From: a virus
Lineage: Duplodnaviria; Heunggongvirae; Uroviricota; Caudoviricetes
Direction: 5' to 3' (one strand)
Length of the DNA stretch: 64,000 nt
IMG/VR virus record: IMGVR_UViG_2687453424_000001
Shown: positions 3,001 to 61,435 of the stretch, piece after piece
How the letters are laid out: every line of letters begins with the position of its first letter
Position numbering within the stretch: the stretch's first letter is position 1
Notes under the pieces: model-generated
Database searches by the model: none
What the model was told of the DNA's origin: nothing
Seen by the model: the letters and a program-made list of their open reading frames with translations, nothing else
Position numbers and translations under genes: made by a program

Positions 3001-3083
3001 NNNNNNNNNNNNNNNNNNNNNNNNNNNNNNNNNNNNNNNNNNNNNNNNNNNNNNNNNNNNNNNNNNNNNNNNNNNNNNNNNNN
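1..3083. other. assembly gap (N run)
   Basis: uninterrupted run of N. Confidence 0.99.
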
Positions 3084-6130: not shown

Positions 6131-6139
6131 TGTGGTTTA

Positions 6140-6317: not shown

Positions 6318-6376
6318 GTAGAATCATAGAATCGTAGAATCATAGAATAGTTAGGATGGGAAAGGACCTTAAGACC
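6318..6376 (-). mobile_element. CR1 LINE 3' terminus (ATTCTRTG-type octamer repeats), continuing into the gap
   Basis: Plus strand reads tagaatcatagaatcgtagaatcatagaat then ttaggatgggaaaggacc; minus-strand translation GLKVLSHPNYSMIL matches the CR1 3' end seen at 60430-60476. Confidence 0.7.
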
Positions 6377-12500: not shown

Positions 12501-13706
12501 NNNNNNNNNNNNNNNNNNNNNNNNNNNNNNNNNNNNNNNNNNNNNNNNNNNNNNNNNNNNNNNNNNNNNNNNNNNNNNNNNNNNNNNNNNNNNNNNNNNN
12601 NNNNNNNNNNNNNNNNNNNNNNNNNNNNNNNNNNNNNNNNNNNNNNNNNNNNNNNNNNNNNNNNNNNNNNNNNNNNNNNNNNNNNNNNNNNNNNNNNNNN
12701 NNNNNNNNNNNNNNNNNNNNNNNNNNNNNNNNNNNNNNNNNNNNNNNNNNNNNNNNNNNNNNNNNNNNNNNNNNNNNNNNNNNNNNNNNNNNNNNNNNNN
12801 NNNNNNNNNNNNNNNNNNNNNNNNNNNNNNNNNNNNNNNNNNNNNNNNNNNNNNNNNNNNNNNNNNNNNNNNNNNNNNNNNNNNNNNNNNNNNNNNNNNN
12901 NNNNNNNNNNNNNNNNNNNNNNNNNNNNNNNNNNNNNNNNNNNNNNNNNNNNNNNNNNNNNNNNNNNNNNNNNNNNNNNNNNNNNNNNNNNNNNNNNNNN
13001 NNNNNNNNNNNNNNNNNNNNNNNNNNNNNNNNNNNNNNNNNNNNNNNNNNNNNNNNNNNNNNNNNNNNNNNNNNNNNNNNNNNNNNNNNNNNNNNNNNNN
13101 NNNNNNNNNNNNNNNNNNNNNNNNNNNNNNNNNNNNNNNNNNNNNNNNNNNNNNNNNNNNNNNNNNNNNNNNNNNNNNNNNNNNNNNNNNNNNNNNNNNN
13201 NNNNNNNNNNNNNNNNNNNNNNNNNNNNNNNNNNNNNNNNNNNNNNNNNNNNNNNNNNNNNNNNNNNNNNNNNNNNNNNNNNNNNNNNNNNNNNNNNNNN
13301 NNNNNNNNNNNNNNNNNNNNNNNNNNNNNNNNNNNNNNNNNNNNNNNNNNNNNNNNNNNNNNNNNNNNNNNNNNNNNNNNNNNNNNNNNNNNNNNNNNNN
13401 NNNNNNNNNNNNNNNNNNNNNNNNNNNNNNNNNNNNNNNNNNNNNNNNNNNNNNNNNNNNNNNNNNNNNNNNNNNNNNNNNNNNNNNNNNNNNNNNNNNN
13501 NNNNNNNNNNNNNNNNNNNNNNNNNNNNNNNNNNNNNNNNNNNNNNNNNNNNNNNNNNNNNNNNNNNNNNNNNNNNNNNNNNNNNNNNNNNNNNNNNNNN
13601 NNNNNNNNNNNNNNNNNNNNNNNNNNNNNNNNNNNNNNNNNNNNNNNNNNNNNNNNNNNNNNNNNNNNNNNNNNNNNNNNNNNNNNNNNNNNNNNNNNNN
13701 NNNNNN
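9516..13706. other. assembly gap (N run)
   Basis: uninterrupted run of N. Confidence 0.99.
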
Positions 13707-13707
13707 G

Positions 13708-13725
13708 TGGTGACCCCGACGTGAT
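13708..13725 (+). other. retroviral primer-binding site complementary to the 3' end of tRNA-Trp (alpharetrovirus type)
   Basis: Exact 18-mer TGGTGACCCCGACGTGAT immediately after the gap; the 5' LTR would lie in the gap. Confidence 0.6.
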
Positions 13726-14350
13726 AGCGATGGATGTGAGCCACGTGGTACAGGTACTGGAGGCCCTCGTGCAGCAAGCTGGGTTGCCGAAGGCGATAAA
13801 CTTGGAGCCAGCGGGCCACTGCATCCAATGGTTGCGAGGCCGGGGGGCGGTGGAGGCCCCTGTGGACGTATTAGATACCTCCCGATGGGGACGGATCTGC
13901 CAAGAGCTTTTGGAAGCAGTCTTGGCTGGGGAAAAGAAAGCAGGAGATCTAGGGGAGACGTGGGGTGCCATCAAGAAAGGTGTCTCCGGGAGAGGAGTTG
14001 CAGGAGCAGCTGCGGGACACGGAGGCGCTGCGGGTGGAGGAGCCGCGGGTGCAAGCGCGGGAGCTGTGGAGGAAAGTGCCCCGGGAGGTGCGGCCGGAGC
14101 CCCCGAGCCGCGCGGCCGAGCGGGCAGTGCCGGGGCTGCAGCATGACTGCCAGAAACCGCGGCAAAGGCAACAGCAAAAAACCGGGAAGCGGAGTCTTGT
14201 GAGCCCTGGTAACACTCCCCTTTGTGCGACAGGGCAGGGGACAGGGGGGTTCCCCACAACGAGCGACAGCAACCCTCAAAGCCTACCCTGGGGGAATCCT
14301 CCCTACTAACGACATTGTCTTTATCCTTGGCTACCAGGCTGGAGTGTTTA
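13726..14350 (+). mobile_element. putative ERV leader / 5' internal region; no recognisable gag motifs
   Basis: Position directly 3' of the primer-binding site; GC-rich; the ORFs here are Gly/Ala/Arg-rich low-complexity. Confidence 0.3.
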
Positions 14351-16002
14351 GTTTGGTTTTGATTTTCTAGAAAAAAAAAAAAAGGTAACCCTTATAGCCT
14401 TTTGAACACGGTGTGTGAGTGCCGTGGTGGACTGTGGACTTGAAACCCCATATACAACTCATTTGATAGTCTCTCTGTGATCCACATGTACTAGAAGTTG
14501 GCAAATATATATCCATGTATATCCATGTTTCTGTTAGCCCTTGGAGAATTTTTATGGATATTGCTGACCACTTCTTCCAATGTAGGCTGGCCACCTGCAT
14601 CGGAATGAGTGTGCATTTTGGTCAGTGTAAAAGCCCAAGGCTCGTGCGATGTGGGGGGGGCAGAGCCTCTGCGGGGACGCCTGCTAAAGTTGAGCCTGCC
14701 GCCTTACACTGCAGTGATGCTGCTTGGAGCTGATTTTTGATTGTCTTCACAGGGTCCTTATGCTACGTTCTGTATGAGGGACCATATAGTGGGAATAATG
14801 ATTGTCTAGGTTTTGTGTTTCAAATATTGTAATTGTATGGAGTGTGCTTGTGGGATCCCATGCGTGTGTGCGTGTGTGTGTGCTGAGGGCGGACAGTGCT
14901 CTATGTATTTTTTGTTGTTGGGTTTGTGTAAAAGTTTTAATGGGTAGCAGATTAACATTTTGGACAAGAAAGGGTTAATGCAAACTGCCGTTGCTGGCAG
15001 GTATTTACTGCTGCTGCTAAGCAGGCAGGCAGCTGTAGCTTCACATTTCTTTCCCATCAGAATGCCTTTGAATCACTTTAACGGGCCTCCTTCTCAGGAG
15101 CTGATAGCGTGGGAGAGGGGGTATGTTTGTGTTCTCCTACCTACAGGTCCATGGCAGCTGCCTGCAAAGTTTGCAAAGCCTTGCCATGAGCTGGACAAAC
15201 AAGTGGAGGAACCCGATGCCTCAGCTACAGAAGCTGACAGTGAATACCCCGAGCAGAATGAGATAGAGGAGAAGAAAAATAAATGATTACAGGACATCAC
15301 TTGAGGGCAACTGAAAAGTAACAACTTGAATATGTGTGCTTGTAACGTAGCTATTATTAGAGGCTGTGATTTTGTGTATAAAACCACTTGTATTTACTAG
15401 CCAGTTGCTAAAGAGAAACTATACCTTGTATTGTGTGCATTTGTTACTTGTAAAAGATGTTAGAGCATGCAAATTTGCAGCAGCTGCTAGAAAATGCTAA
15501 GACAAAAGCTAGAAAGATTCTAATATGATGGTAGTGTTATAAACCAGGTAATGGAACAAATTAAGAGGGTGGAAGAACTCCACTGGTAAGAAAATTCTTT
15601 GGCTAGTTTCTTGCTGCCATCAGCATTTTCAACATGCTGTTGTAACCTGTAATAGTTACTCTGGTAATGTAAATCTGTGTATGCTTTGCCACAGTAGCAA
15701 CTTGTTACTGGATGAAGCAGGTGAAACTCTGCATTGACAACGAGGTACAAGAACTGAGGTTGACCAAATGCCTGCTGCCACAGTCAAGGGCAAGACTGGG
15801 TTGGCCTCTGTATTTGCCACCAAGAAGAACCTTTAGCTCTGCTGTTGGCTGCGACCCAGCAGGCGTGGAGCGATGGGGACACATGCCATGCCAGGCCTTG
15901 ATGTGAGGGGATGGCCTCCCCTGTTATCAGAGAGACATCCAGGAGAAAAAGGGCAGACCCAGCAGCCTGTGACTGACCTGTGTTGAAGAAATATGAAAAC
16001 AT

Positions 16003-16788
16003 GCTAAGATCTTACACATGGTGTATGAGGATGGGCAAGCCTTTTGGCTGGACAATTTGTTAGGTGAATGGGGACTGACAGGTTGGCTGGTTGCTCTAGT
16101 AAAAGGTGGACTAATGGTGTTTATTGTCATTTTAACGATTTTGATTTTGTTGCTGTGTATTTTTAATGTATCCAACGAATGATTATGAGTGCTACAAAGC
16201 GTGTTTGGCTTGTATAAAAAGAAAAAGGCGGAGATGTGGATGACTTTCTGGCAAAGAACAGCCATGTACCCAGATCAGCAAGTGCCTACGTGGAGTCGGA
16301 CATGAACCAAGGGTCAACAAAAGCTGAAGGAATCCCAGCAAGATAAGAAGGAACTGACAAATGCTACTATGCTTGCACTAAGTGGGCTCTTGACTGATGT
16401 TGATAGTGTTCGTCATGCCACCTTACAAATAGGGCAGCAATCGACTTTTTATTGTTGGCACAGGGGCATGGTTGTGCTGAATTTGAGGGGATGTGCTGCA
16501 TGAATTTGTTAGATCATTTGGAATCAATTTATAAGAGTATACAACAATTGAAAGAGGGGGTTAAATGGCTAACGAAAGATGATGGATGGAGTAGCTATAT
16601 TATGTGTGTTAGTTTTATTTGTATTAGTAGCAAGTTTTATGTTGCGGTGTGTGATATCTATGGTTAAGAAAAATGTAACATCCGTCTGCTTTGCTCAAAA
16701 ACAAAAAGAGGGAATTGTGGAGTGGCTGAGGGACGGTGGATATTTCGTGACCAACCGAGAGGTCAGCCTTAGGAGATGGTGGTTATGA
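16003..16788 (+). mobile_element. ERV env transmembrane-subunit remnants (alpharetrovirus gp37-like), frameshifted and partly duplicated
   Basis: [30 protein letters not shown] (CX6CC motif) encoded from 16428; hydrophobic membrane-spanning segments at about 16064-16160 (GEWGLTGWLVALVKGGLMVFIVILTILILLLC) and 16590-16660 ([22 protein letters not shown]). Confidence 0.55.
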
Positions 16789-17180
16789 AGAATACAGCTG
16801 AACAATGGACATGTGAGCAATCCCAGCTGTTTGGTTTTAGCCAAACTCTGACTTAAGTTGCAAGGTCTGAATTCAAGTTACTCAGGCTGTGAGGCCTAGC
16901 CTTAGGTTACTAAAGGACAGTTACGTGCAGTAGAATAAGGAACTTGGCATTTGCTCAAGGCTAACAAGATGTGGGAGCGGGATGGTGAAACTGCAAGTTA
17001 TGTGAGAAAGGTAGCGAATGGATAATTTTAGCTAGCTTGTTATCTGCTTCAAAATGTGTGGACTGCACTTCTGAGCCAATCACAATCTATATTGGTTACG
17101 TCTAGCCAATAGCAGTTCAATTTCTGGAAGCATATACTGTAGCTACTGTAGCTACTGTGCTACGACAGTGGTCTGTGGAC
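16789..17180 (+). mobile_element. possible LTR-like segment between env and pol remnants
   Basis: Position after the env stop; CCAAT-box-like motifs (ccaatcacaatc, agccaatagc). Boundaries not defined. Confidence 0.25.
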
Positions 17181-17244
17181 CCCATTGGCCATTGAGACTA
17201 CGATGGAATGTGCGCAAGTCCTTTTTCAGGCTTTGTCTGAGCGA

Positions 17245-17660
17245 GCTGCTGAAATTTGCCCAAATCACTGTAATAGTCATTCGCACATCCCTGGACTCCT
17301 GACTGAAGGTAGCAATAGTGCAGACCGTGTTGCACAAGGTCTGCCAGTTCCTGACTGTTGTGCTCCAGTTTTTATGCGCTATTTACATGTCACGGTTGAT
17401 ACCTGTAGCAGTGTCATTTTGGCTACAGCACAACGCAAGCAAGACGCCAAAGCAGCCATTTTGCATTGGCGCGAGGTCATGGCGATTTTGGGAGTCCCTA
17501 GCCAGATCAAGACCGACAATGGTCCAGCATATTCAAGTCAACTGGTGGCTTCATTTTTATGACAGTGGGGCATTGAGCATAAGACCGGTTGTCCTTATAA
17601 CAGCACTGGCCCAGCTATCGTCGAACGCGCGCACCGGACTCTGAAAGCTCGCCTCGTGTG
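17245..17660 (+). mobile_element. ERV pol remnant: RNase H C-terminus and integrase catalytic core, frameshifted
   Basis: ORF 17185..17562 has GNSADRVA (RNase H end), HVTVDTCSS and IKTDNGPAYSS (the two Asp motifs). The next frame at 17563-17640 gives [28 protein letters not shown] (the Glu motif). Confidence 0.65.
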
Positions 17661-18371
17661 TCTTGAGGCGGGGGAGACCGTACCCGGAAGAGCTCCCGCA
17701 GTCCGTGTGCGCTGACTTTTACTTTCTGCTCTGACTCGTTTAAATCAATTCTCGCATGGATCAAGTGAACAATCCCCGATGAGCTCGCACTTTGCCTCAC
17801 CTCTAGACAAACCCTCGTATCCACAGGTACGGGTGAAAGATCTGGAAAAGGGCAAGATAGGTCCATTTGCCCTACGTGCTCACGGGTGAGGCTATGCCTG
17901 TGTGGAGGGGGAGACTGGGCTAAGCTGAGCACGGGCAAAATGGTTATTACCGTATTTGTAGCTGTGTCTGTAAGTTTGTATTTGAGCTATGTTTCACAGG
18001 TGGTGATTGGTGCTTGGCTGTATCTGGGAGAGAGTGATGGAAAGAGGTGTGAAATGACATCCATGGCCCTTATGTGTCCAGATGACTTCGCTCACGGATC
18101 CAGTCAAGATGTGCCTTACGAACTTTGTAGCCAGCCGTTGAATACGACATCACTCAGGCCGGAAACACCTGCGTCTAGGTCCCTTTAGGCTGACGCTCTG
18201 TGTTTATTAGTATTAGGATGTTTGTTTCCTTCTTGTTTGATTATGTAATGCGCACTGTGTTTGAATACTTAGTGGCACAAACCTTTCTTACTTAGTTAAT
18301 AAGAGTTATAAGTTGCTTATCTGGAATAGCTGTTAAAACCCTGAGTTTTCTAGTCTTGAGGCGGGGGAGAT

Positions 18372-21300
18372 NNNNNNNNNNNNNNNNNNNNNNNNNNNNN
18401 NNNNNNNNNNNNNNNNNNNNNNNNNNNNNNNNNNNNNNNNNNNNNNNNNNNNNNNNNNNNNNNNNNNNNNNNNNNNNNNNNNNNNNNNNNNNNNNNNNNN
18501 NNNNNNNNNNNNNNNNNNNNNNNNNNNNNNNNNNNNNNNNNNNNNNNNNNNNNNNNNNNNNNNNNNNNNNNNNNNNNNNNNNNNNNNNNNNNNNNNNNNN
18601 NNNNNNNNNNNNNNNNNNNNNNNNNNNNNNNNNNNNNNNNNNNNNNNNNNNNNNNNNNNNNNNNNNNNNNNNNNNNNNNNNNNNNNNNNNNNNNNNNNNN
18701 NNNNNNNNNNNNNNNNNNNNNNNNNNNNNNNNNNNNNNNNNNNNNNNNNNNNNNNNNNNNNNNNNNNNNNNNNNNNNNNNNNNNNNNNNNNNNNNNNNNN
18801 NNNNNNNNNNNNNNNNNNNNNNNNNNNNNNNNNNNNNNNNNNNNNNNNNNNNNNNNNNNNNNNNNNNNNNNNNNNNNNNNNNNNNNNNNNNNNNNNNNNN
18901 NNNNNNNNNNNNNNNNNNNNNNNNNNNNNNNNNNNNNNNNNNNNNNNNNNNNNNNNNNNNNNNNNNNNNNNNNNNNNNNNNNNNNNNNNNNNNNNNNNNN
19001 NNNNNNNNNNNNNNNNNNNNNNNNNNNNNNNNNNNNNNNNNNNNNNNNNNNNNNNNNNNNNNNNNNNNNNNNNNNNNNNNNNNNNNNNNNNNNNNNNNNN
19101 NNNNNNNNNNNNNNNNNNNNNNNNNNNNNNNNNNNNNNNNNNNNNNNNNNNNNNNNNNNNNNNNNNNNNNNNNNNNNNNNNNNNNNNNNNNNNNNNNNNN
19201 NNNNNNNNNNNNNNNNNNNNNNNNNNNNNNNNNNNNNNNNNNNNNNNNNNNNNNNNNNNNNNNNNNNNNNNNNNNNNNNNNNNNNNNNNNNNNNNNNNNN
19301 NNNNNNNNNNNNNNNNNNNNNNNNNNNNNNNNNNNNNNNNNNNNNNNNNNNNNNNNNNNNNNNNNNNNNNNNNNNNNNNNNNNNNNNNNNNNNNNNNNNN
19401 NNNNNNNNNNNNNNNNNNNNNNNNNNNNNNNNNNNNNNNNNNNNNNNNNNNNNNNNNNNNNNNNNNNNNNNNNNNNNNNNNNNNNNNNNNNNNNNNNNNN
19501 NNNNNNNNNNNNNNNNNNNNNNNNNNNNNNNNNNNNNNNNNNNNNNNNNNNNNNNNNNNNNNNNNNNNNNNNNNNNNNNNNNNNNNNNNNNNNNNNNNNN
19601 NNNNNNNNNNNNNNNNNNNNNNNNNNNNNNNNNNNNNNNNNNNNNNNNNNNNNNNNNNNNNNNNNNNNNNNNNNNNNNNNNNNNNNNNNNNNNNNNNNNN
19701 NNNNNNNNNNNNNNNNNNNNNNNNNNNNNNNNNNNNNNNNNNNNNNNNNNNNNNNNNNNNNNNNNNNNNNNNNNNNNNNNNNNNNNNNNNNNNNNNNNNN
19801 NNNNNNNNNNNNNNNNNNNNNNNNNNNNNNNNNNNNNNNNNNNNNNNNNNNNNNNNNNNNNNNNNNNNNNNNNNNNNNNNNNNNNNNNNNNNNNNNNNNN
19901 NNNNNNNNNNNNNNNNNNNNNNNNNNNNNNNNNNNNNNNNNNNNNNNNNNNNNNNNNNNNNNNNNNNNNNNNNNNNNNNNNNNNNNNNNNNNNNNNNNNN
20001 NNNNNNNNNNNNNNNNNNNNNNNNNNNNNNNNNNNNNNNNNNNNNNNNNNNNNNNNNNNNNNNNNNNNNNNNNNNNNNNNNNNNNNNNNNNNNNNNNNNN
20101 NNNNNNNNNNNNNNNNNNNNNNNNNNNNNNNNNNNNNNNNNNNNNNNNNNNNNNNNNNNNNNNNNNNNNNNNNNNNNNNNNNNNNNNNNNNNNNNNNNNN
20201 NNNNNNNNNNNNNNNNNNNNNNNNNNNNNNNNNNNNNNNNNNNNNNNNNNNNNNNNNNNNNNNNNNNNNNNNNNNNNNNNNNNNNNNNNNNNNNNNNNNN
20301 NNNNNNNNNNNNNNNNNNNNNNNNNNNNNNNNNNNNNNNNNNNNNNNNNNNNNNNNNNNNNNNNNNNNNNNNNNNNNNNNNNNNNNNNNNNNNNNNNNNN
20401 NNNNNNNNNNNNNNNNNNNNNNNNNNNNNNNNNNNNNNNNNNNNNNNNNNNNNNNNNNNNNNNNNNNNNNNNNNNNNNNNNNNNNNNNNNNNNNNNNNNN
20501 NNNNNNNNNNNNNNNNNNNNNNNNNNNNNNNNNNNNNNNNNNNNNNNNNNNNNNNNNNNNNNNNNNNNNNNNNNNNNNNNNNNNNNNNNNNNNNNNNNNN
20601 NNNNNNNNNNNNNNNNNNNNNNNNNNNNNNNNNNNNNNNNNNNNNNNNNNNNNNNNNNNNNNNNNNNNNNNNNNNNNNNNNNNNNNNNNNNNNNNNNNNN
20701 NNNNNNNNNNNNNNNNNNNNNNNNNNNNNNNNNNNNNNNNNNNNNNNNNNNNNNNNNNNNNNNNNNNNNNNNNNNNNNNNNNNNNNNNNNNNNNNNNNNN
20801 NNNNNNNNNNNNNNNNNNNNNNNNNNNNNNNNNNNNNNNNNNNNNNNNNNNNNNNNNNNNNNNNNNNNNNNNNNNNNNNNNNNNNNNNNNNNNNNNNNNN
20901 NNNNNNNNNNNNNNNNNNNNNNNNNNNNNNNNNNNNNNNNNNNNNNNNNNNNNNNNNNNNNNNNNNNNNNNNNNNNNNNNNNNNNNNNNNNNNNNNNNNN
21001 NNNNNNNNNNNNNNNNNNNNNNNNNNNNNNNNNNNNNNNNNNNNNNNNNNNNNNNNNNNNNNNNNNNNNNNNNNNNNNNNNNNNNNNNNNNNNNNNNNNN
21101 NNNNNNNNNNNNNNNNNNNNNNNNNNNNNNNNNNNNNNNNNNNNNNNNNNNNNNNNNNNNNNNNNNNNNNNNNNNNNNNNNNNNNNNNNNNNNNNNNNNN
21201 NNNNNNNNNNNNNNNNNNNNNNNNNNNNNNNNNNNNNNNNNNNNNNNNNNNNNNNNNNNNNNNNNNNNNNNNNNNNNNNNNNNNNNNNNNNNNNNNNNNN

Positions 21301-22565
21301 NNNNNNNNNNNNNNNNNNNNNNNNNNNNNNNNNNNNNNNNNNNNNNNNNNNNNNNNNNNNNNNNNNNNNNNNNNNNNNNNNNNNNNNNNNNNNNNNNNNN
21401 NNNNNNNNNNNNNNNNNNNNNNNNNNNNNNNNNNNNNNNNNNNNNNNNNNNNNNNNNNNNNNNNNNNNNNNNNNNNNNNNNNNNNNNNNNNNNNNNNNNN
21501 NNNNNNNNNNNNNNNNNNNNNNNNNNNNNNNNNNNNNNNNNNNNNNNNNNNNNNNNNNNNNNNNNNNNNNNNNNNNNNNNNNNNNNNNNNNNNNNNNNNN
21601 NNNNNNNNNNNNNNNNNNNNNNNNNNNNNNNNNNNNNNNNNNNNNNNNNNNNNNNNNNNNNNNNNNNNNNNNNNNNNNNNNNNNNNNNNNNNNNNNNNNN
21701 NNNNNNNNNNNNNNNNNNNNNNNNNNNNNNNNNNNNNNNNNNNNNNNNNNNNNNNNNNNNNNNNNNNNNNNNNNNNNNNNNNNNNNNNNNNNNNNNNNNN
21801 NNNNNNNNNNNNNNNNNNNNNNNNNNNNNNNNNNNNNNNNNNNNNNNNNNNNNNNNNNNNNNNNNNNNNNNNNNNNNNNNNNNNNNNNNNNNNNNNNNNN
21901 NNNNNNNNNNNNNNNNNNNNNNNNNNNNNNNNNNNNNNNNNNNNNNNNNNNNNNNNNNNNNNNNNNNNNNNNNNNNNNNNNNNNNNNNNNNNNNNNNNNN
22001 NNNNNNNNNNNNNNNNNNNNNNNNNNNNNNNNNNNNNNNNNNNNNNNNNNNNNNNNNNNNNNNNNNNNNNNNNNNNNNNNNNNNNNNNNNNNNNNNNNNN
22101 NNNNNNNNNNNNNNNNNNNNNNNNNNNNNNNNNNNNNNNNNNNNNNNNNNNNNNNNNNNNNNNNNNNNNNNNNNNNNNNNNNNNNNNNNNNNNNNNNNNN
22201 NNNNNNNNNNNNNNNNNNNNNNNNNNNNNNNNNNNNNNNNNNNNNNNNNNNNNNNNNNNNNNNNNNNNNNNNNNNNNNNNNNNNNNNNNNNNNNNNNNNN
22301 NNNNNNNNNNNNNNNNNNNNNNNNNNNNNNNNNNNNNNNNNNNNNNNNNNNNNNNNNNNNNNNNNNNNNNNNNNNNNNNNNNNNNNNNNNNNNNNNNNNN
22401 NNNNNNNNNNNNNNNNNNNNNNNNNNNNNNNNNNNNNNNNNNNNNNNNNNNNNNNNNNNNNNNNNNNNNNNNNNNNNNNNNNNNNNNNNNNNNNNNNNNN
22501 NNNNNNNNNNNNNNNNNNNNNNNNNNNNNNNNNNNNNNNNNNNNNNNNNNNNNNNNNNNNNNNNN
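18372..22565. other. assembly gap (N run)
   Basis: uninterrupted run of N. Confidence 0.99.
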
Positions 22566-23229
22566 CTTTTTCCCTTTCCTGGTGCTGGTGGCTGTGTGTG
22601 CTGGCAGAAGCAATGTGGCTCCAAGGACTCAGCTCTGTACCACTGCAGGGGTTTCATGAAGCCGCTCTGCGAAAGCTCCGATACCCACCAGGGCTGTTAG
22701 ATGTAAGAGAGTTTCAGTGTCTGCACTCACAACTATGAAGATTGTGGCTGCAGAGCAGAGCTTCAGCGTGACTCTATCAGGATTTTTGCAGGAGTTTCTC
22801 AGCTGACAAATGCTATTTGAGGTGTAGAAATCCTAATTTTTGTAACTGAACGCGTGGTCAGTATTAGGACAGGAGAGATGAAAGGGCTTAGCAGCCCATG
22901 GATTAGTGCATAGTCTGGAGAGCTGCAGATTCCATCACTCTTGTTCCCAGCTGCCCTGCACTGGTCCTTGTGATGCCCAAAGTATTTCTGCACACACAGA
23001 TAAATTGAGAGAATAAAAGGAGAAAGAATGAGATAAAGAACAACTGGACTCTGGTGCCAGCTAGGGACCTCTGCTGTTGCAAAGGGCAGAACTTCTCCCT
23101 CGCATCCCAGGGTGCAACTGTGATAGACAGAGTAGGACACAGCCCTTGGAAGCAGAAGCAAAGGACTCTGAGTGCAGAGCGCCAACCCCAAGGGAAGGCT
23201 CCGCAATAGTCAGGACCCTACAGGAGAGC

Positions 23230-23700
23230 ATCTCTCTGCGTCCCAGGAGCCCAGCCCAGCTCAGCAGCAGAGGCCCAGCCCAAGGTGGCTCTGCCTCTGC
23301 CCGGCTGGGCACCATCCAGGGCTCCCTGGTGCTCCAGGGGAACACCATGGGAAACAGCCTGAAGCAAGCACTGATGTTCCCTCCCTCAGCTGGCAGACAC
23401 ACTGCCTGCCTGCAGTGTCATTTCTCTGATGAGAGACAGAGTTTGGTCTGAACAACAAGATTTTGTAGAATCATGGAACCATTTAGGCTGGAAAAGAACC
23501 TTAAGATCATTGAGTCCAACATTAACCAAACACTGGCAAGTCAACACATTAAGCATGTCCCTTAGAACATGTCTATTAAATACCTCCAGGGTTGATGACA
23601 AAACCACTTCTGCAGGCAGCCTGTTTCTTGTCCCATTATTAGACACCCTCTCACAGTAGAATGGGGTTTTGCTGAGCATGGCTCTTCCTGTGACCTATTC
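23230..23700. repeat. segment A of an inverted-repeat pair (partner at 46400-46878); includes a CR1 3' end at 23466-23660 (minus orientation)
   Basis: ORF 23061..23402 (minus) and ORF 46706.. (plus) both start MCLPAEG.NISACFRLFPMVFPWS.REPW. CR1 end tagaatcatggaaccatttaggctggaaaagaacc at 23466. Confidence 0.6.
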
Positions 23701-24141
23701 AAACTGACCCTAATGGACCAAAAAGAACTTTAATGTTCAAATCACCTCTTTTAAATACACTGAACCAACACATTTTGAGTGGGAAAAGGGACTCTTGTCT
23801 TTAGTCCCAGCAGTAAAACAAACTGAGAACACTAATCAAGAACAATCTTCCATTCAATCCATTCAGTCAACTTCATAGTATCCCAAAGGGAACTGCTCCT
23901 CAGGATGGAGCTGCACAAACCCACTGGCAGAAAACGGCATGCCTACCTACCGGGGTTTGCAGAGGAAGTGAAATTACCTGAAGGACAGACTGAAGTTTCC
24001 AAACTACTGCAGATGCCTGTAAATGCAGAGCCATCAGCGTTACAACAACCTTTCAAACCCTCAACAGGTTTAGAAGCACCTCCCTTCACCAAGGGAGCAC
24101 CAACAGAAAATACCTTGTTCACCGGTGCCTCAGCAAAAGGG

Positions 24142-25275
24142 ATCATAGAATCATAGAATCATCCAGGTTGGAAAAGACCTTTAAGCTCTTCCAGTTCAAC
24201 CCTTACCCCAGCACTGCCGAGGCCACCACTAACCCATGGCACTGAGGCCTCGTCTCCATGGAGTGTGAACACTCACAGGGACGGTGACTCCAGCCCTGCC
24301 CTGGGCAGCCTGTTCCAATGCCAGAGCACCCTCTGGGGAAGGAATTGTTCCTCAGCTCCATCTAAACCTGCCCTGGTGCAGCTTGAGGCCGTTTCCTCTT
24401 GTCCCATCCCTTGTTCCTTGGGAGCAGAGCCCAGCCTCTCCTGGCTCCATCCTCCTGTCAGGCAGTTGTAGGGAGCGATCAGGTCCCCCCTGAGCCTTCT
24501 CTTCTCCAGACTGAACCCCCCAGGTCCCTCAGCCGTTCTCCATCACACTGTGCTCCAGGCCCTGCACCAGCTCCGGTGCCCTTCTCTGGCCCCGCTCCAG
24601 CACCTCAATGTCTCTCTTGTTAGTCAGGGACCCAGAGCTGAACACAGGATCCGAGGTGCAGCCTCACCAGTGCCCAGTGCAGGACACAACCACTGCCCTG
24701 GCCCTGCTGCCGCACTGGTGCTGATCCAGGCCAGGATGCTGGTGGCTTCCTGGCTGCCTGGGCACAAGCTGCTCCTGTTCAGCTCCATCAATCAGCACCC
24801 CCAGCTCCTTTCCCATGAGCAGTTTCCAACCGCTCTTCCCCAAGCCTGGAGCATTGCAGGGGGTTGTTGTGGCCCAAGTGCAGGAGCCAGCACTTTGCCT
24901 TCTGGAACCTCATCCCATTGGCCACAGCCCATGGATGCAGCCTGTCCAGATCCCTCTGCAGAGCTTCCTACCCTCCAGCAGATCAATGTTCCCACCTGAT
25001 TTGGTGTCATCTGCAAATTTACACATCCCAGTATGGAGCAGTATGGACCAGTTTGCACCAGTACAGACCAATATAGGCCACTATGGCCCCAGATATTGCT
25101 GGGGTTTCAATATCCCAGTGCTCCCAGTCCCTGCTGCAGGTCTTCTCATTTGCAGCCATGCTCAACTCCCAATCCCTCCCAGTGCTCCCACTACCTGCTG
25201 CAGGTGCTCCCAATCCCTCTCAGTCCTCCCCAGTCCCTCCCAGTGCTCCCAGTCCCTGCCACCGGTGCTCCTTCT
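24142..25275 (-). mobile_element. CR1 LINE 3' portion (3' terminus at about 24142), degenerate, continuing into the gap
   Basis: atcatagaatcatagaatcatccaggttggaaaagacc at 24142; 24300-25020 has the same sequence pattern as 8005-8700. Confidence 0.6.
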
Positions 25276-28200
25276 NNNNNNNNNNNNNNNNNNNNNNNNN
25301 NNNNNNNNNNNNNNNNNNNNNNNNNNNNNNNNNNNNNNNNNNNNNNNNNNNNNNNNNNNNNNNNNNNNNNNNNNNNNNNNNNNNNNNNNNNNNNNNNNNN
25401 NNNNNNNNNNNNNNNNNNNNNNNNNNNNNNNNNNNNNNNNNNNNNNNNNNNNNNNNNNNNNNNNNNNNNNNNNNNNNNNNNNNNNNNNNNNNNNNNNNNN
25501 NNNNNNNNNNNNNNNNNNNNNNNNNNNNNNNNNNNNNNNNNNNNNNNNNNNNNNNNNNNNNNNNNNNNNNNNNNNNNNNNNNNNNNNNNNNNNNNNNNNN
25601 NNNNNNNNNNNNNNNNNNNNNNNNNNNNNNNNNNNNNNNNNNNNNNNNNNNNNNNNNNNNNNNNNNNNNNNNNNNNNNNNNNNNNNNNNNNNNNNNNNNN
25701 NNNNNNNNNNNNNNNNNNNNNNNNNNNNNNNNNNNNNNNNNNNNNNNNNNNNNNNNNNNNNNNNNNNNNNNNNNNNNNNNNNNNNNNNNNNNNNNNNNNN
25801 NNNNNNNNNNNNNNNNNNNNNNNNNNNNNNNNNNNNNNNNNNNNNNNNNNNNNNNNNNNNNNNNNNNNNNNNNNNNNNNNNNNNNNNNNNNNNNNNNNNN
25901 NNNNNNNNNNNNNNNNNNNNNNNNNNNNNNNNNNNNNNNNNNNNNNNNNNNNNNNNNNNNNNNNNNNNNNNNNNNNNNNNNNNNNNNNNNNNNNNNNNNN
26001 NNNNNNNNNNNNNNNNNNNNNNNNNNNNNNNNNNNNNNNNNNNNNNNNNNNNNNNNNNNNNNNNNNNNNNNNNNNNNNNNNNNNNNNNNNNNNNNNNNNN
26101 NNNNNNNNNNNNNNNNNNNNNNNNNNNNNNNNNNNNNNNNNNNNNNNNNNNNNNNNNNNNNNNNNNNNNNNNNNNNNNNNNNNNNNNNNNNNNNNNNNNN
26201 NNNNNNNNNNNNNNNNNNNNNNNNNNNNNNNNNNNNNNNNNNNNNNNNNNNNNNNNNNNNNNNNNNNNNNNNNNNNNNNNNNNNNNNNNNNNNNNNNNNN
26301 NNNNNNNNNNNNNNNNNNNNNNNNNNNNNNNNNNNNNNNNNNNNNNNNNNNNNNNNNNNNNNNNNNNNNNNNNNNNNNNNNNNNNNNNNNNNNNNNNNNN
26401 NNNNNNNNNNNNNNNNNNNNNNNNNNNNNNNNNNNNNNNNNNNNNNNNNNNNNNNNNNNNNNNNNNNNNNNNNNNNNNNNNNNNNNNNNNNNNNNNNNNN
26501 NNNNNNNNNNNNNNNNNNNNNNNNNNNNNNNNNNNNNNNNNNNNNNNNNNNNNNNNNNNNNNNNNNNNNNNNNNNNNNNNNNNNNNNNNNNNNNNNNNNN
26601 NNNNNNNNNNNNNNNNNNNNNNNNNNNNNNNNNNNNNNNNNNNNNNNNNNNNNNNNNNNNNNNNNNNNNNNNNNNNNNNNNNNNNNNNNNNNNNNNNNNN
26701 NNNNNNNNNNNNNNNNNNNNNNNNNNNNNNNNNNNNNNNNNNNNNNNNNNNNNNNNNNNNNNNNNNNNNNNNNNNNNNNNNNNNNNNNNNNNNNNNNNNN
26801 NNNNNNNNNNNNNNNNNNNNNNNNNNNNNNNNNNNNNNNNNNNNNNNNNNNNNNNNNNNNNNNNNNNNNNNNNNNNNNNNNNNNNNNNNNNNNNNNNNNN
26901 NNNNNNNNNNNNNNNNNNNNNNNNNNNNNNNNNNNNNNNNNNNNNNNNNNNNNNNNNNNNNNNNNNNNNNNNNNNNNNNNNNNNNNNNNNNNNNNNNNNN
27001 NNNNNNNNNNNNNNNNNNNNNNNNNNNNNNNNNNNNNNNNNNNNNNNNNNNNNNNNNNNNNNNNNNNNNNNNNNNNNNNNNNNNNNNNNNNNNNNNNNNN
27101 NNNNNNNNNNNNNNNNNNNNNNNNNNNNNNNNNNNNNNNNNNNNNNNNNNNNNNNNNNNNNNNNNNNNNNNNNNNNNNNNNNNNNNNNNNNNNNNNNNNN
27201 NNNNNNNNNNNNNNNNNNNNNNNNNNNNNNNNNNNNNNNNNNNNNNNNNNNNNNNNNNNNNNNNNNNNNNNNNNNNNNNNNNNNNNNNNNNNNNNNNNNN
27301 NNNNNNNNNNNNNNNNNNNNNNNNNNNNNNNNNNNNNNNNNNNNNNNNNNNNNNNNNNNNNNNNNNNNNNNNNNNNNNNNNNNNNNNNNNNNNNNNNNNN
27401 NNNNNNNNNNNNNNNNNNNNNNNNNNNNNNNNNNNNNNNNNNNNNNNNNNNNNNNNNNNNNNNNNNNNNNNNNNNNNNNNNNNNNNNNNNNNNNNNNNNN
27501 NNNNNNNNNNNNNNNNNNNNNNNNNNNNNNNNNNNNNNNNNNNNNNNNNNNNNNNNNNNNNNNNNNNNNNNNNNNNNNNNNNNNNNNNNNNNNNNNNNNN
27601 NNNNNNNNNNNNNNNNNNNNNNNNNNNNNNNNNNNNNNNNNNNNNNNNNNNNNNNNNNNNNNNNNNNNNNNNNNNNNNNNNNNNNNNNNNNNNNNNNNNN
27701 NNNNNNNNNNNNNNNNNNNNNNNNNNNNNNNNNNNNNNNNNNNNNNNNNNNNNNNNNNNNNNNNNNNNNNNNNNNNNNNNNNNNNNNNNNNNNNNNNNNN
27801 NNNNNNNNNNNNNNNNNNNNNNNNNNNNNNNNNNNNNNNNNNNNNNNNNNNNNNNNNNNNNNNNNNNNNNNNNNNNNNNNNNNNNNNNNNNNNNNNNNNN
27901 NNNNNNNNNNNNNNNNNNNNNNNNNNNNNNNNNNNNNNNNNNNNNNNNNNNNNNNNNNNNNNNNNNNNNNNNNNNNNNNNNNNNNNNNNNNNNNNNNNNN
28001 NNNNNNNNNNNNNNNNNNNNNNNNNNNNNNNNNNNNNNNNNNNNNNNNNNNNNNNNNNNNNNNNNNNNNNNNNNNNNNNNNNNNNNNNNNNNNNNNNNNN
28101 NNNNNNNNNNNNNNNNNNNNNNNNNNNNNNNNNNNNNNNNNNNNNNNNNNNNNNNNNNNNNNNNNNNNNNNNNNNNNNNNNNNNNNNNNNNNNNNNNNNN

Positions 28201-29433
28201 NNNNNNNNNNNNNNNNNNNNNNNNNNNNNNNNNNNNNNNNNNNNNNNNNNNNNNNNNNNNNNNNNNNNNNNNNNNNNNNNNNNNNNNNNNNNNNNNNNNN
28301 NNNNNNNNNNNNNNNNNNNNNNNNNNNNNNNNNNNNNNNNNNNNNNNNNNNNNNNNNNNNNNNNNNNNNNNNNNNNNNNNNNNNNNNNNNNNNNNNNNNN
28401 NNNNNNNNNNNNNNNNNNNNNNNNNNNNNNNNNNNNNNNNNNNNNNNNNNNNNNNNNNNNNNNNNNNNNNNNNNNNNNNNNNNNNNNNNNNNNNNNNNNN
28501 NNNNNNNNNNNNNNNNNNNNNNNNNNNNNNNNNNNNNNNNNNNNNNNNNNNNNNNNNNNNNNNNNNNNNNNNNNNNNNNNNNNNNNNNNNNNNNNNNNNN
28601 NNNNNNNNNNNNNNNNNNNNNNNNNNNNNNNNNNNNNNNNNNNNNNNNNNNNNNNNNNNNNNNNNNNNNNNNNNNNNNNNNNNNNNNNNNNNNNNNNNNN
28701 NNNNNNNNNNNNNNNNNNNNNNNNNNNNNNNNNNNNNNNNNNNNNNNNNNNNNNNNNNNNNNNNNNNNNNNNNNNNNNNNNNNNNNNNNNNNNNNNNNNN
28801 NNNNNNNNNNNNNNNNNNNNNNNNNNNNNNNNNNNNNNNNNNNNNNNNNNNNNNNNNNNNNNNNNNNNNNNNNNNNNNNNNNNNNNNNNNNNNNNNNNNN
28901 NNNNNNNNNNNNNNNNNNNNNNNNNNNNNNNNNNNNNNNNNNNNNNNNNNNNNNNNNNNNNNNNNNNNNNNNNNNNNNNNNNNNNNNNNNNNNNNNNNNN
29001 NNNNNNNNNNNNNNNNNNNNNNNNNNNNNNNNNNNNNNNNNNNNNNNNNNNNNNNNNNNNNNNNNNNNNNNNNNNNNNNNNNNNNNNNNNNNNNNNNNNN
29101 NNNNNNNNNNNNNNNNNNNNNNNNNNNNNNNNNNNNNNNNNNNNNNNNNNNNNNNNNNNNNNNNNNNNNNNNNNNNNNNNNNNNNNNNNNNNNNNNNNNN
29201 NNNNNNNNNNNNNNNNNNNNNNNNNNNNNNNNNNNNNNNNNNNNNNNNNNNNNNNNNNNNNNNNNNNNNNNNNNNNNNNNNNNNNNNNNNNNNNNNNNNN
29301 NNNNNNNNNNNNNNNNNNNNNNNNNNNNNNNNNNNNNNNNNNNNNNNNNNNNNNNNNNNNNNNNNNNNNNNNNNNNNNNNNNNNNNNNNNNNNNNNNNNN
29401 NNNNNNNNNNNNNNNNNNNNNNNNNNNNNNNNN
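25276..29433. other. assembly gap (N run)
   Basis: uninterrupted run of N. Confidence 0.99.
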
Positions 29434-30047
29434 ACCCCAAATCAGGCACCCTCCCACTCTGGGTCTGCCCCCCCCAGTCCCTGATATGGGGGGGCGTGGG
29501 GGTGGTGGGGGTGTTGGAATGCCACATGGAGTGTGGTATGGGGACAACAAGGAGCGTTTTGGTACTGGTGGCTTTGGGGGGAGCAGCTTTGTGGGGGCAT
29601 CCCCATTTGGGGTGGGGGTGCTTGGAGGGGCACTTCCAGGATTTGGTTCCCTGGGTTCATTTGGGAGGGCCCGAGGTGATGGTGGGGTGCAGGTCACTTT
29701 TGGGCTGCCCCAGGATCCCCATTTGTGGGTCCTGTCTGCTCTTGTGGTGCTTCAGGAAGATTTGGGGTACCCCAGGATTTTGGGTGGCACCGCAACTGGT
29801 TTGGGTGCCTCCAGGGCCCTTGGGGGGGGCAGCGTGGGTTTGGGGTGCCCCTTATTTGGGGTGCCCCCAGTGGTTTTGAAGTCCCAGAGCACCTTAGGGG
29901 ACCCCCAGGGCGGTGCTGGGGGAACCTTTCTTTTTAGGACACCCCTTTTTTAGTGAATTTGTGCCACTGAGCTGAGCCGGGGCAGCTTTGGAGCTGTGGG
30001 CTTTGGGTTTGGGGAGATTTTGGGGGATCCTGGGAGGATTTTGGGGA
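29434..30047. repeat. G-rich degenerate tandem repeat (about 40 bp period; tttggggtgcccc / ggattttgggg motifs)
   Basis: Repeated motifs seen directly; the ORFs here are Gly/Trp/Pro-rich translation artefacts. Confidence 0.45.
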
Positions 30048-30597
30048 TTCAGGCTGGTCCCCTTTCCTGGTTTAGCAGTAGCAGTCATTTTTTCTACTGG
30101 TGCAGTGCTGTGTTTTGACTTTCGACCTGGGAATAATACTGATAAAGCTGATGTTTTCAGTTGTGGGTCAGAATGTTTACCCTGACCAAGGACTTTGTGA
30201 GTCTCATGCTGTGCCAGGGAGGAGGAGAAGCCGGGAGGAAGCAGAGACAGGACACCTGACCCAAACTAGCCAAAGAGGTATTCCATACCACAGCACGTCA
30301 TGCCCAGGATGTAGAATGGAGAGGGCCCGGAAGGGCTAGATGACTGCGGGGTGAGGTACCGGTTGGTGAGCGATTGTATTCTCTTCCTTGTTATTTCCTT
30401 TATCATTATTACTATTAGTGGTAGCAGTAGTGATTTGTGTTATACCTTAGTTATTAAACTGTTCTTATCTCAACCCGTGGGAGTTGCATTCTTTCGATTC
30501 TCCTCCCCATCCCTCCAGGAGCGGAGGGAAGAAAGGTGTGGGGGGGAAGTAGACTGCGTGGTTCTGATTTATGGCCTGGGCTTAAACCACAACATCC
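30048..30597 (-). mobile_element. LTR (family L), copy 1, minus orientation
   Basis: Reverse complement matches the copy at 31296-31836 end to end; ORF 30100..30339 and ORF 31589..31786 (minus) give near-identical peptides (HA.PGRR.SREEA.TGHLTQ.SQRGIPYHSTSCPG). Confidence 0.65.
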
Positions 30598-31295
30598 CCA
30601 AAATGCCTCTGGGTGGCTCAGTTATTTGGGGGATTCCTCATCTCCTGCAAATAGGGGTCCATCAATCCCAGGGCAGCTGAATCTCCTTGGATGCCCTAGG
30701 GAGCCCCGTTGCCATAAATTGGAGGAATTTTGGGGTTTGGAGTCATTTGGGGGTTCAAGGAACGTTTGGAGGTTTGGCAGGGGTCCCCAAAACTCGCTGT
30801 AGGAGGCACATTATATTGGGAGATCTCCCATATACCGAAAACGGGGGATACCTGGGTCTCAGGTCACATTGGGTGAGCAATGATCCCTCAGAGTGGTGAT
30901 GTGTTGAGGGGAAGAGTTTGGGGCTCAGAGGGGATTTGGGCATTGGGGGAGATCCTCAAAGCTCCCGGGGTGAAGAGCAACGGAACGGCCAGGTACAAGT
31001 CCACTGCCACGTCCATCCCGCCCTGCTGCCAGAGCCCGCTCCTATTACAAGTCATTACCATAAAGTACAATGAAACAAGAACCTTAGCCCAAGGCCCACA
31101 CTTGGTAAACACTAACACAGCAAATACTGGCTGTAAGTAAGGTACAACATGCTGAAACTGTGACATCAAAACCAACAACTTTGAGAGCCAATAAATCAGC
31201 ATTGTGATGAGTGCTTTTCACAAATACGGTTAGACACACTCCGGTCAGATCTGTCGTTATCTCAACCTTTCATGCCCCACGTTGGGCACCAAAAA

Positions 31296-31836
31296 AGAAC
31301 TGTCGTGGTTTAAACCCAGTCAGCCATCAATCAGCCACACAGTCTCTCCCCCCACTTCTTTCCCTCCCCCTGCTCCCGGAGGGATAGGAAGGAGAATTGA
31401 AAGAATGTAACTCCCACAGGTTGAGGTAAGAACAGTTTAGCAACTAAGGTATAACACAAATCACTACTGCTACCACCAATAATAATAGTGATAAAGGAAA
31501 TAACAAGGGAAGAGAATACAACACCTCACCACCCGCCAACCGATAACTCACCCCCACCCAGCAGTGATCCAGCCCTTCCGGGTAACTCTCAGTTACCTCC
31601 CGGGCATGACGTGCTGTGGTATGGAATACCTCTCTGGCTAGGTTGGGTCAGGTGTCCTGTCCCTGCTTCCTCCCGGCTTCCCCTCCTCCCTGGCAGAGCA
31701 TGAGACTCAGAAAGTCCTTGGTCAGACCAAACATCGGTGTTATCAGCTCTGTTCCCAGGCTGAAAGTCAAAAACACAGCGCTGCACCAGGTACTAAGGAG
31801 AAAAAATGACTGCTACTTCTGAACCAGGACAGCACC
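31296..31836 (+). mobile_element. LTR (family L), copy 2, plus orientation
   Basis: Starts tgtcgtggtttaaaccc and ends ..gaaccaggaca; partial copies at 6140-6317 and about 39480-39980. Confidence 0.65.
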
Positions 31837-31839
31837 AAG

Positions 31840-32280
31840 TGACACCAAGTGACCCTCCAGACCTACAACTGCCCCCCAAAGTGACACCCCAGATCCACAA
31901 CTGCCTCCCCAGTTACCTGAAGGAGATTCCTCAGACCCACATCCGCCCCAAGTGACCCCACAGTGACCCCACATACCCACAACTGCCCCCCAAGTGACCC
32001 ACCCACACCCACAACTGCCCCCAGTGACCCCAAAGAGACCTCTCAGACCCACAGCTGATGCCCAAATGATACCCCAGACCTACAACTGCCATCCAAGTGA
32101 CCCTCCAGACCCACAAGTGCCCCCCACGTGACCCCAAAATAACTCCTCAGACCCACAACTGACCTACAAGTGATCCCAAGTGACCCCCATTACCTACAAC
32201 TGCCCCCAAGGTGACCACCAAGTGACCCCCCAGACCCACAACTGCCCCCCCAGTGACCTCAAAGAGACCGCTCAGAACAT
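31840..32280. repeat. tandem repeat, degenerate ~41 bp unit (cagacccacaactgccccccaagtgacccc), about 11 copies
   Basis: Periodic repetition seen directly; minus-strand ORF 31813..32052 is its translation. Confidence 0.7.
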
Positions 32281-33077
32281 GCTGCTCAGGCAGTAGACTT
32301 GCAGCTGCTTTCCTATGTTAGGAAATTGAAATGACTTTTGCCTAGCTAGAAGGATGGGATTATTTAGTTTGCTTCTTGGATCAGTTTGAAGTCAAGATCC
32401 TCACCTCTTTGTATACAGAGACAGAGGTTTGCACTCTGCAGAAGTGAAGATTCTGATGAGGTGAGGTGGTAAAAGGCAGAAGCTCCCTCCTGAATAGACT
32501 TAATGCTCTGTAAACACCAATGTATTGAAACAGAAATGGAATCATAGGAAGGACTCTAAGACACTCAGATTTATTCCACAAGAAGGCTTCTTGTGCAAAC
32601 ACGGCTCAGAATAAATCTGAACTCCAGCCTTTAAGTGCTACTTCCAAAAGAAACAGGGGAAAAATGGTCAAGAAGATTTTTAGAATTATTTCTTTTATGT
32701 ATCTCGAGCTAATCAAAAGATCCAGATTGTTGCTGAGATGTTAAAACCAATGAACAGATCAGCTGTGTAATCAAAAGAGGTGCACGCACGACTCAAGAGA
32801 GTTTCTCCTTCTTGCCTTTTTGTGCCAGGAGGCTGGTAATACCTTCTGACAGCCAAAGATCTCCGTGTCCTGACATACTGTCACTGGAGCTGTCTTTATT
32901 TCCAGCCAAACAAGGGGCAGGACAACTGCACCCAGTGAACAGTAACCAATAAAAACTCTCCTTTGAATTAATGCCCTTTTGCACTTCAGGCCTGCCCTGA
33001 AATGTGAAGGCTCTTTATTTTGACCTTAGCCTGGTAAGCAGATGGGAAGTCACCCAAGTGTTTGCTCACATACCTAA

Positions 33078-33428
33078 AATAGGGAAATGGGGCTTCTTTT
33101 GGTTAGTGCCTGTGTCACATCAGGCTGTTATGTTTTCATAGTGGGGTCCTATGTGCAGATCTTCAGGGCCGTGCTGAGGATCCCCTCTGAGCAGGGACCC
33201 CACAAAGCCTTTCCCACGTGCCTCCCTCACCTGGACGTGCTCTCCCTGTTTGTCAGCACTGGTACCTTTGCCTACCTAAAGCCCCTCTCCGTCTCCTCTG
33301 CCTCCCAGGATCTGGCTATGGTGGTGCTGTACTCAGTGTTGCCTCCAGCAGGAAACCCCCTCATCTGCAGCCTGAGAAACCAGGAGCTCAAGGATGCTCT
33401 GAGGAAGCTGGTGACCAGATGCGTTTGA
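33078..33428 (+). pseudogene. olfactory receptor fragment (C-terminal TM5-TM7 third only); truncated, probably pseudogene
   Basis: ORF 33087..33428: LRIPSEQGPHKAFPTCLPHLDVLSLF ... NPLICSLRNQELKDALRKL fits the olfactory-receptor C-terminal pattern (LRIPS..KAFSTC..HL.VV.LFY..NPLIYSLRN). In-frame TAA at 33075-33077 and no upstream TM1-TM4 in any frame. Confidence 0.65.
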
Positions 33429-33773
33429 GCAGCCATACACTGCTTGCTTTACCCTGGAAACGGTTTCCATTGTAGATCATGACAGACCACGTCTGTCTTT
33501 GCTGCTTTACAGTTCTTTTCCTTTTTCCACTTGAGAAGTTGCTGTCTTCAAAAAAGGTCAGTTTTCATCACCTCCTACTTGTCTGACCCACAGACTTTGT
33601 ATCAATAGAGGTCCCTTTTTGTATGTAAGCACAATAAACCATCCTGCAGCAACTTCTCTGTGCTATGTACTCACATGGCAGGAATGAAAGGGAATGAAAT
33701 CAGCTTTCTGGCTGCTCCAGCTCTGGGATGGCTGCTCTGTGCCTGGAGCAGAAGAGCTCTTGGAGAGCCTGGC

Positions 33774-59924: not shown

Positions 59925-60476
59925 GAACATGAGCCAGCTGTGTGCAGTCGCTTGGGGTATTGTGTGCAGTTCTGGTGTCCTCAACATCAAAAGGACATGG
60001 AACTGTTGGAGCAAGTCCAGAGGAGGGCCACAAGGATGATCAGGGGACTGGAGCACCTCCCATATGAAGACAGGCTGAGGAAGTTGGGGCTGTTCAGCCT
60101 GGAGAAGAGAAGGCTGCGTGGAGACCTCATAGCAGCCTTCCAGTATCTAAAGGAGGCCTATTAATATGCTGGAGAGGGCCTCTTCACTAGGGACTGTAGT
60201 GATAGGACAAGGGGTAACATGCTCAAACATAAACAGAGGAAGTTGAGATTGGATATAAGGAAGAAGTTCTTGACTGTAAGGGTGGTGAGGCACTGGAAGA
60301 GGTTGCCCAGGGAAGTCGTGAATGCTCCATCCCTGGCAGTGTTCAAGGCCATTTTGGATAGAGCCTTGGGTGACATGGTTTAGTGGGAGGTGTCCCTGCC
60401 CATAGCAGGGGGGTTGGAACTAGATGGTCTTAAGGTCCTTTTCAACCCTAACTATTCTATGATTCTACAATTCTAA
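59925..60476 (+). mobile_element. CR1 LINE 3' portion (ORF2 C-terminus and 3' end with octamer repeats)
   Basis: ORF 59940..60164 [67 protein letters not shown]; then VVRHWKRLPREVVNAPSLAVFKA; terminal ctattctatgattctacaattcta. Confidence 0.8.
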
Positions 60477-60599
60477 GGCCATGCCGAGCCTCTCTTGTGC
60501 AGCCCAGACTCATCCGAGTCAGAAGTACAAATAGTGAACTTTACAATCAAGTTGGAATTTATCTGCTATCCCTTGTGATTATCAGAGCTGGACAAAGCA

Positions 60600-60679
60600 C
60601 TGCTTCAGAGCAAACCTGACTCCCATCCAACCTGGCCTTGAACACTGCGAAGGATGGGGCAGCCACAGCTTCTCTGCTG
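60600..60679 (-). mobile_element. CR1 3'-end-like fragment, minus orientation
   Basis: catccaacctggccttgaacactgcgaaggatggggcagccacagcttctctg. Confidence 0.4.
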
Positions 60680-60757
60680 GTTAGGGTTCTCTGCTGGGTT
60701 AGGGTTAGGGTTAGGGTTTTAGGGGGTTAGGGCGTTAGGGGGTTAGGGCGTTAGGGT
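60680..60757 (+). repeat. short degenerate telomere-like repeat (TTAGGG / TTAGGGGG / TTAGGGC units) abutting vector sequence
   Basis: ggttagggtt...gggttagggttagggttagggttttagggggttagggcgttaggg seen directly. Confidence 0.75.
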
Positions 60758-60763
60758 AAAAAG

Positions 60764-61106
60764 CTCGCTTTCAGCACCTGTCGTTTCCTTTCTTTTCAGA
60801 GGGTATTTTAAATAAAAACATTAAGTTATGACGAAGAAGAACGGAAACGCCTTAAACCGGAAAATTTTCATAAATAGCGAAAACCCGCGAGGTCGCCGCC
60901 CCGTAACCTGTCGGATCACCGGAAAGGACCCGTAAAGTGATAATGATTATCATCTACATATCACAACGTGCGTGGAGGCCATCAAACCACGTCAAATAAT
61001 CAATTATGACGCAGGTATCGTATTAATTGATCTGCATCAACTTAACGTAAAAACAACTTCAGACAATACAAATCAGCGACACTGAATACGGGGCAACCTC
61101 ATGTCC
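60764..61106 (-). other. phage lambda cos region (right end joined to left end across cosN), as carried in BAC/fosmid/cosmid vectors
   Basis: Reverse complement matches, from memory, the lambda left end (gggcggcgacctcgcgggttttcgctatttatgaaaattttccgg...) and right end (...cctttccggtgatccgacaggttacg); the cohesive-end junction lies at about 60890-60902. Confidence 0.85.
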
Positions 61107-61126
61107 GAGCTCGCGAGCTCGTCGAC
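61107..61126. other. synthetic polylinker (GAGCTC-TCGCGA-GCTC-GTCGAC: SacI/NruI/SacI/SalI sites)
   Basis: Restriction-site string between lambda-derived and F-derived sequence. Confidence 0.6.
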
Positions 61127-61435
61127 AGCGACACACTTGCATCGGATGCAGCCCGGTTAACGTGCCGGCACGGCCTGGGTAACCAGGTATTTTGTCCACA
61201 TAACCGTGCGCAAAATGTTGTGGATAAGCAGGACACAGCAGCAATCCACAGCAGGCATACAACCGCACACCGAGGTTACTCCGTTCTACAGGTTACGACG
61301 ACATGTCAATACTTGCCCTTGACAGGCATTGATGGAATCGTAGTCTCACGCTGATAGTCTGATCGACAATACAAGTGGGACCGTGGTCCCAGACCGATAA
61401 TCAGACCGACAACACGAGTGGGATCGTGGTCCCAG
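61127..61435. other. F-plasmid-derived vector backbone next to sopC, with the first sopC centromere repeats (about 61352-61435)
   Basis: tgggaccgtggtccca inverted-repeat cores in direct repeats (gaccgataatcagaccgacaacacgagtgggatcgtggtcccag), recalled as the sopC partition site of pBeloBAC11-type vectors. Confidence 0.75.

Follow-up and report, generated by a model that had tools for sequence, protein, structure and literature searches.

The window analysed here, a stretch of 64,000 nt, carries at positions 60758-61435 a segment in which phage lambda DNA, a synthetic linker and F plasmid DNA follow one another. The segment forms the 3' end of the last contig (59719-61435) and is followed by a run of N, a scaffold gap, from 61436 to the end of the window at 64000. 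On its left it abuts a degenerate TTAGGG tract at 60680-60757 on the plus strand, preceded by a duplicated TTCTCTGCTGG motif, for which TRF reported periods of 6, 8, 16 and 18. The window consists of 10 contigs of 0.5-4.7 kb each with N runs of 20 to 5,645 nt between them, and approximately 62% of its length is N. In a local BLAST search, the rest of the window gave no further matches to vector, lambda or F, and no sopB, sopA, repE/oriS or chloramphenicol-resistance sequence.

Structure of the segment

Positions 60758-60901 correspond to the left end of phage lambda (nt 145 to 1) in reverse complement, as confirmed by both BLAST and alignment. The left end is joined as in a sealed cos site to the right end of lambda (nt 48502 to 48299), which occupies positions 60902-61105, likewise in reverse complement; the 12 nt of the cohesive end, AGGTCGCCGCCC, take up 60890-60901. 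Over the joined ends, 60758-61105 was identical to NC_001416 at 348 of 349 positions with one gap, while several further lambda-type records and the vector-bearing record CP036489.1 matched it at 100% (E-values for the segment matches were 0 or about 1e-164). The match to lambda ends at nt 145, short of nu1 at nt 191, and the flanks of the cos segment are the TTAGGG tract on one side and linker and F DNA on the other, not the phage genes expected of a natural phage or prophage cos site.

The gap in the alignment is a one-base deletion within 60758-60901, where the window and the vector read GAGCTTTTT and reference lambda reads GAGGCTTTTT. In NC_001416, GAGGCTTTTT is located at nt ~135-146, in the stem upstream of nu1. 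The initial annotation had described GAGCTTTTT as a vector-specific variant. The difference from phage lambda is real, but it is not specific to vectors, since PV340536, KT232076, DE3, HK629 and HK630 are 100% identical to the segment from its first base on, and PV340536 has the same one-base deletion in the alignment. As GAGCTTTTT occurs in natural or laboratory lambda records, we ruled it out as a vector signature; the extra base in NC_001416 represents either a strain difference or an error in the reference. The true engineering signature is the linker, together with the juxtaposition of lambda and F sequences.

The linker, at 61106-61121, consists of two tandem 8-mer SacI linkers, CGAGCTCG (TRF period 8, 2.0 copies, 100%), with an NruI site made where the two copies of CGAGCTCG meet. 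Restriction sites were located for SacI at 61107 and 61115, for NruI at 61111 and for SalI at 61121, and the last two linker bases (61120-61121) overlap the start of the F match. An identical linker is present in CP036489.1; it is absent from lambda and, at this position, from F. In the alignments, lambda diverges after ...CATGTC and F diverges before CGTCGAC, and thus the linker belongs to neither parent.

The F plasmid DNA extends on the minus strand from 61120 to 61435, running from the SalI site (61121-61126) into sopC, and is identical to NC_002483 52402-52717 at all 316 positions. It is collinear with CP036489.1 9363-9678 in the numbering of the extracted locus. The first approximately two 43-bp sopC (parC) centromere repeats of F are located at 61353-61435 on the minus strand (TRF period 43, 1.9 copies), although self-offsets in BLAST place the start of the repeat similarity at about 61333, so that the repeats take up the last ~83-103 nt. 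Matches offset by 43 nt were also obtained from the window to the sopC arrays of F and CP036489.1. The full array in the CP036489.1 locus spans 9596-10065 and has 12 copies, and the contig end falls within this 12-copy array.

A reverse complement of the lambda cos junction, a SacI/NruI/SalI polylinker and F sopC repeats had all been proposed from the sequence, in the order of pBeloBAC11-type vectors. The cos junction was found at 60758-61105, the polylinker was recovered in the restriction-site listing and by TRF, and the sopC repeats were confirmed within the F part. The order sopC, SalI, SacI/NruI/SacI linker and cos (followed by loxP) also agrees with the backbone of CP036489.1 and NZ_CP104070.1.

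Identity as a cloning-vector fragment

Matches to the entire 678 nt of 60758-61435 were obtained to two PLSDB records, CP036489.1 with 100% identity and NZ_CP104070.1 with 99.9% identity, and these were the only end-to-end matches in the three collections searched. None of the phage records covered at least 80% of the segment, and neither did any single place in the 5,426 complete E. coli genomes.

The two records share a backbone block of 8,104 bp, which contains a pUC-type polylinker, T7 promoter, lacZ-alpha, NotI, loxP, cos, the linker and 12 sopC repeats, followed by sopB, sopA, repE, a resolvase fragment and catA1. Their inserts are located at the HindIII site or at the Eco72I site (CAC/GTG) flanked by BamHI. 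Based on this backbone and these insert positions, we read the two records as CopyControl pCC1-type BAC or fosmid clones of the pBAC108L/pBeloBAC11 lineage. Members of this vector family combine F oriS, repE, parA and parB (and parC) with chloramphenicol resistance, lambda cosN and P1 loxP (PMC8314000, PMC8466411).

Within the segment, the lambda ends form a closed cos, and the two SacI linkers connect it to F at its SalI site, a short distance upstream of sopC. By sequence comparison, we consider with a probability of about 0.96 that 60758-61435 is an unremoved mini-F vector fragment of the pBAC108L/pBeloBAC11 lineage, its identity being judged via surrogate records that are labelled as bacterial plasmids. 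The initial annotation had likewise proposed unremoved vector and not host sequence, and this proposal is supported by the full-length matches, by the linker and by the counts of zero among the phage records and among the 5,426 E. coli genomes. We take the segment to be common to the whole lineage, including pBeloBAC11, pECBAC1, pIndigoBAC, pCC1BAC, pCC1FOS and pEpiFOS. Because the segment is shared, the 678 nt do not separate pBeloBAC11 from the other five, and the particular vector cannot be named.

We also considered contamination with natural E. coli DNA, in which an F plasmid and lambda or a lambdoid prophage would derive from the cloning host. Each half of the segment alone matches thousands of natural records, with the lambda half being 100% identical to many E. 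coli chromosomes and phages, and the F half being 100% identical to F and IncF plasmids. However, two synthetic SacI linkers, found in neither parent, stand between the halves, lambda identity ends at nt 48299, and F identity begins exactly at the SalI site. Where natural F or IncFIA DNA reads ...GAGGAGGCCGTCGAC, the window has lambda DNA and CGAGCTCGCGAGCTCGTCGAC. Moreover, no E. coli genome in the set carries the two halves in one place, at the 80% coverage given above, and lacZ-alpha, T7, loxP and cat are all present in the only two records that match over the full length. A natural E. coli source is thus extremely improbable.

The best E. coli match to part of both halves was NZ_CP081489.1, a 'complete' E. 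coli BL21(DE3) genome. The matching region, 4484959-4497487, comprises truncated pseudogenes, numerous tRNAs and an incomplete piece of cos and F. It is probably concatenated assembly debris, and this patchwork was rejected as evidence of a natural arrangement.

Contig and scaffold context

The non-vector part of the last contig, 59719-60757, contains interspersed repeats in common with five other contigs of the window. It includes a CR1-type 3' tail with an ATTCTACA octamer microsatellite, as identified by TRF; the assignment to CR1 is based on the 3' ends of avian CR1 elements. Pfam matches to reverse transcriptase were obtained in another contig of the window. No plasmid match was obtained for 59719-60757, also when the search was run in distant mode, nor for the remaining contigs with the exception of 3084-5167. 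The sequence at 59719-60757 is probably avian, and represents vertebrate-like, repeat-rich DNA.

CR1-like and other repeats are shared between contigs, as seen for 59951-60036 and 8006-8090 (95%), and for 60426-60475 and 6327-6376 (92%). Since repeats are common to the ten contigs, the scaffold may be held together largely by repeats.

The exception, 3084-5167, displayed 92-95% nucleotide identity to conjugative plasmids of Lactiplantibacillus plantarum. Encoded here are a VirB4-like DUF87 ATPase, with amino-acid identity of up to 99%, and part of a conjugal transfer protein, and the open reading frame of the VirB4-like ATPase (3307-5373, minus strand) runs on into host-like sequence. The contig to which it belongs, 3084-6376, switches abruptly at 5167/5168 to GC-rich host-like sequence with a CR1-type tail at the end. 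This contig is a clean chimera, and its plasmid part, 3084-5167, is a second contaminant in the same scaffold.

The window has only three HindIII sites, and one of them (AAGCTT) forms the very first bases of another contig, 52260-53511. We estimate the chance that any of the 20 contig ends would meet a given hexamer at ~0.005. The start of this contig looks like a BAC-end read from a HindIII library, which hints at the source of the vector. Taken together, the HindIII start and the Lactiplantibacillus chimera fit a clone-based, chimera-prone data set.

The junction between host and vector sequence

The contig next to the last one contains a degenerate interstitial TTAGGG array of ~340 nt at 53686-54018, followed by non-telomeric sequence; a gap of 20 N is located at 53512-53531. 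The tract at 60680-60757 is approximately 90% similar to the part of this array at 53842-53902. Both tracts have the same orientation and the same variants, such as TTTTAGGG, and the tract at the junction is therefore most simply explained as host sequence. It is telomere-like and probably interstitial, and is not part of the vector.

At the junction, 60757/60758, similarity to vector and lambda sequences changes from none on the left to 100% from 60758 onwards, with no microhomology in the alignment. In the vector, the lambda cassette reads ...GAAAGGAAACGACAGAGGCC up to this point and AAAAAGCTCGC... from it; to the left of this point, loxP follows after ~75 nt and the polylinker after ~500 nt. 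Both vector and lambda continue leftwards as ...CGACAGAGGCC, a sequence that is absent from the window. Thus, the junction does not coincide with the cloning site, and the break is located inside the lambda segment, a cos cassette of 400 bp. A junction away from the cloning site is not what a simple untrimmed clone end would leave, and a break inside lambda next to TTAGGG points to a chimeric read or clone.

Two other causes of the break were examined and rejected. Healing of the vector end by telomere addition is at odds with the orientation of the repeats, as the G-rich strand, 5'-TTAGGG-3', runs towards the vector, which places the repeats on the host side. Nor does any restriction site fit, since the GGCC of the vector is located just upstream and the break occurs after it, not within it.

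The vector could instead have been physically integrated in the animal or cell line, for example as a BAC transgene or as stray laboratory DNA that was end-joined beside an interstitial telomeric repeat. The random break point without microhomology is what non-homologous end joining would give, and the TTAGGG tract resembles the genuine host array of the neighbouring contig. Yet there is no sign of a transgenic source, and the fragment is located at a contig end beside a gap, with the other parts of the vector absent from the window. The second clean chimera in the scaffold, with unrelated bacterial plasmid DNA, argues for chimerism in the library or assembly. Integration is therefore very unlikely.

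A purely computational misjoin, in which a spurious overlap led the assembler to combine a host read with one made up of vector only, agrees with the low coverage and fragmentation of the region (apparent from the number of contigs and the proportion of N) and with the recurrence of TTAGGG arrays and CR1 elements among the contigs. But the vector sequence upstream of 60758, GAAAGGAAACGACAGAGGCC, is unlike the TTAGGG tract, and identity jumps from 0 to 100%. There is thus no overlap on which to merge, so that the junction must lie within one or more reads, and we regard a pure misjoin as unlikely.

The join, we infer, goes back to a chimeric insert or read formed in vitro or in E. coli, and neither to the assembler nor to an event in the animal. 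For the preferred reading, that of an unremoved vector fragment, the following origin is the most likely. BAC or fosmid clones would have been part of the sequencing project or of the laboratory environment, and a randomly broken vector fragment would have been co-ligated or joined, in one clone or read, with a host fragment ending in TTAGGG. At low coverage, the chimeric read would then have been taken into the consensus. The contig may stop in sopC because the read ended there, or because the array of 12 x 43 bp blocked further extension.

Consequences for database records

The vector fragment is functionless in the sequenced organism. It is a laboratory artefact of a known kind, without biological novelty, and its relevance is restricted to data hygiene. 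Masking or trimming is called for over 60758-61435; the contig and scaffold joins around the fragment are suspect, and so is 3084-5167. If left unmasked, the fragment could give rise to false signals of 'horizontal transfer', to spurious matches to lambda, F and E. coli, and to wrong scaffolding.

Of the records with full-length matches, CP036489.1 is listed in PLSDB as Rahnella aquatilis pMEM40-2 (49.3 kb; 15024-33701 examined) and NZ_CP104070.1 as Alicyclobacillus fastidiosus unnamed3 (39.8 kb; 886-19563 examined). Judged by their sequences, both look like library clones that have been mislabelled as native plasmids. The Lactiplantibacillus chimera and these two clone-like plasmids indicate that such contamination spreads through public databases.

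Comparison with known systems

Compared with the cos region of phage lambda (NC_001416), the segment takes in cosN, cosQ and most of cosB, but it stops at nt 145 on one side and at nt 48299 on the other, and no phage genes follow on either. The F part includes the first two 43-bp SopB-binding repeats of the F sopC centromere (NC_002483), without any mismatch over its full length. F itself runs on across the SalI site, whereas the window has the linker and lambda DNA to the left of this site, and sopA and sopB of F are missing from the window.

The likeness to pCC1FOS and pCC1BAC (EU140751) is drawn via the two pCC1-type clones, with 100% and 99.9% identity over 678 nt; the window includes neither oriV nor a cloning site, which would set the pCC1 vectors apart from pBeloBAC11, pECBAC1 and pIndigoBAC. 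In comparison with pBeloBAC11, the fragment does not include the last ~75 nt of the cos cassette, loxP, the cloning site, cat, repE and sopA/B. The side of the vector that carries loxP, NotI and lacZ-alpha/T7 is missing; the vector sequence breaks off ~75 nt before loxP, and the TTAGGG tract is found in its place. Its absence would reflect a truncated fragment and not a different architecture. According to the literature, pBeloBAC11 (U51113) and its parent pBAC108L likewise have a mini-F backbone with lambda cosN beside the par/sop region of F.
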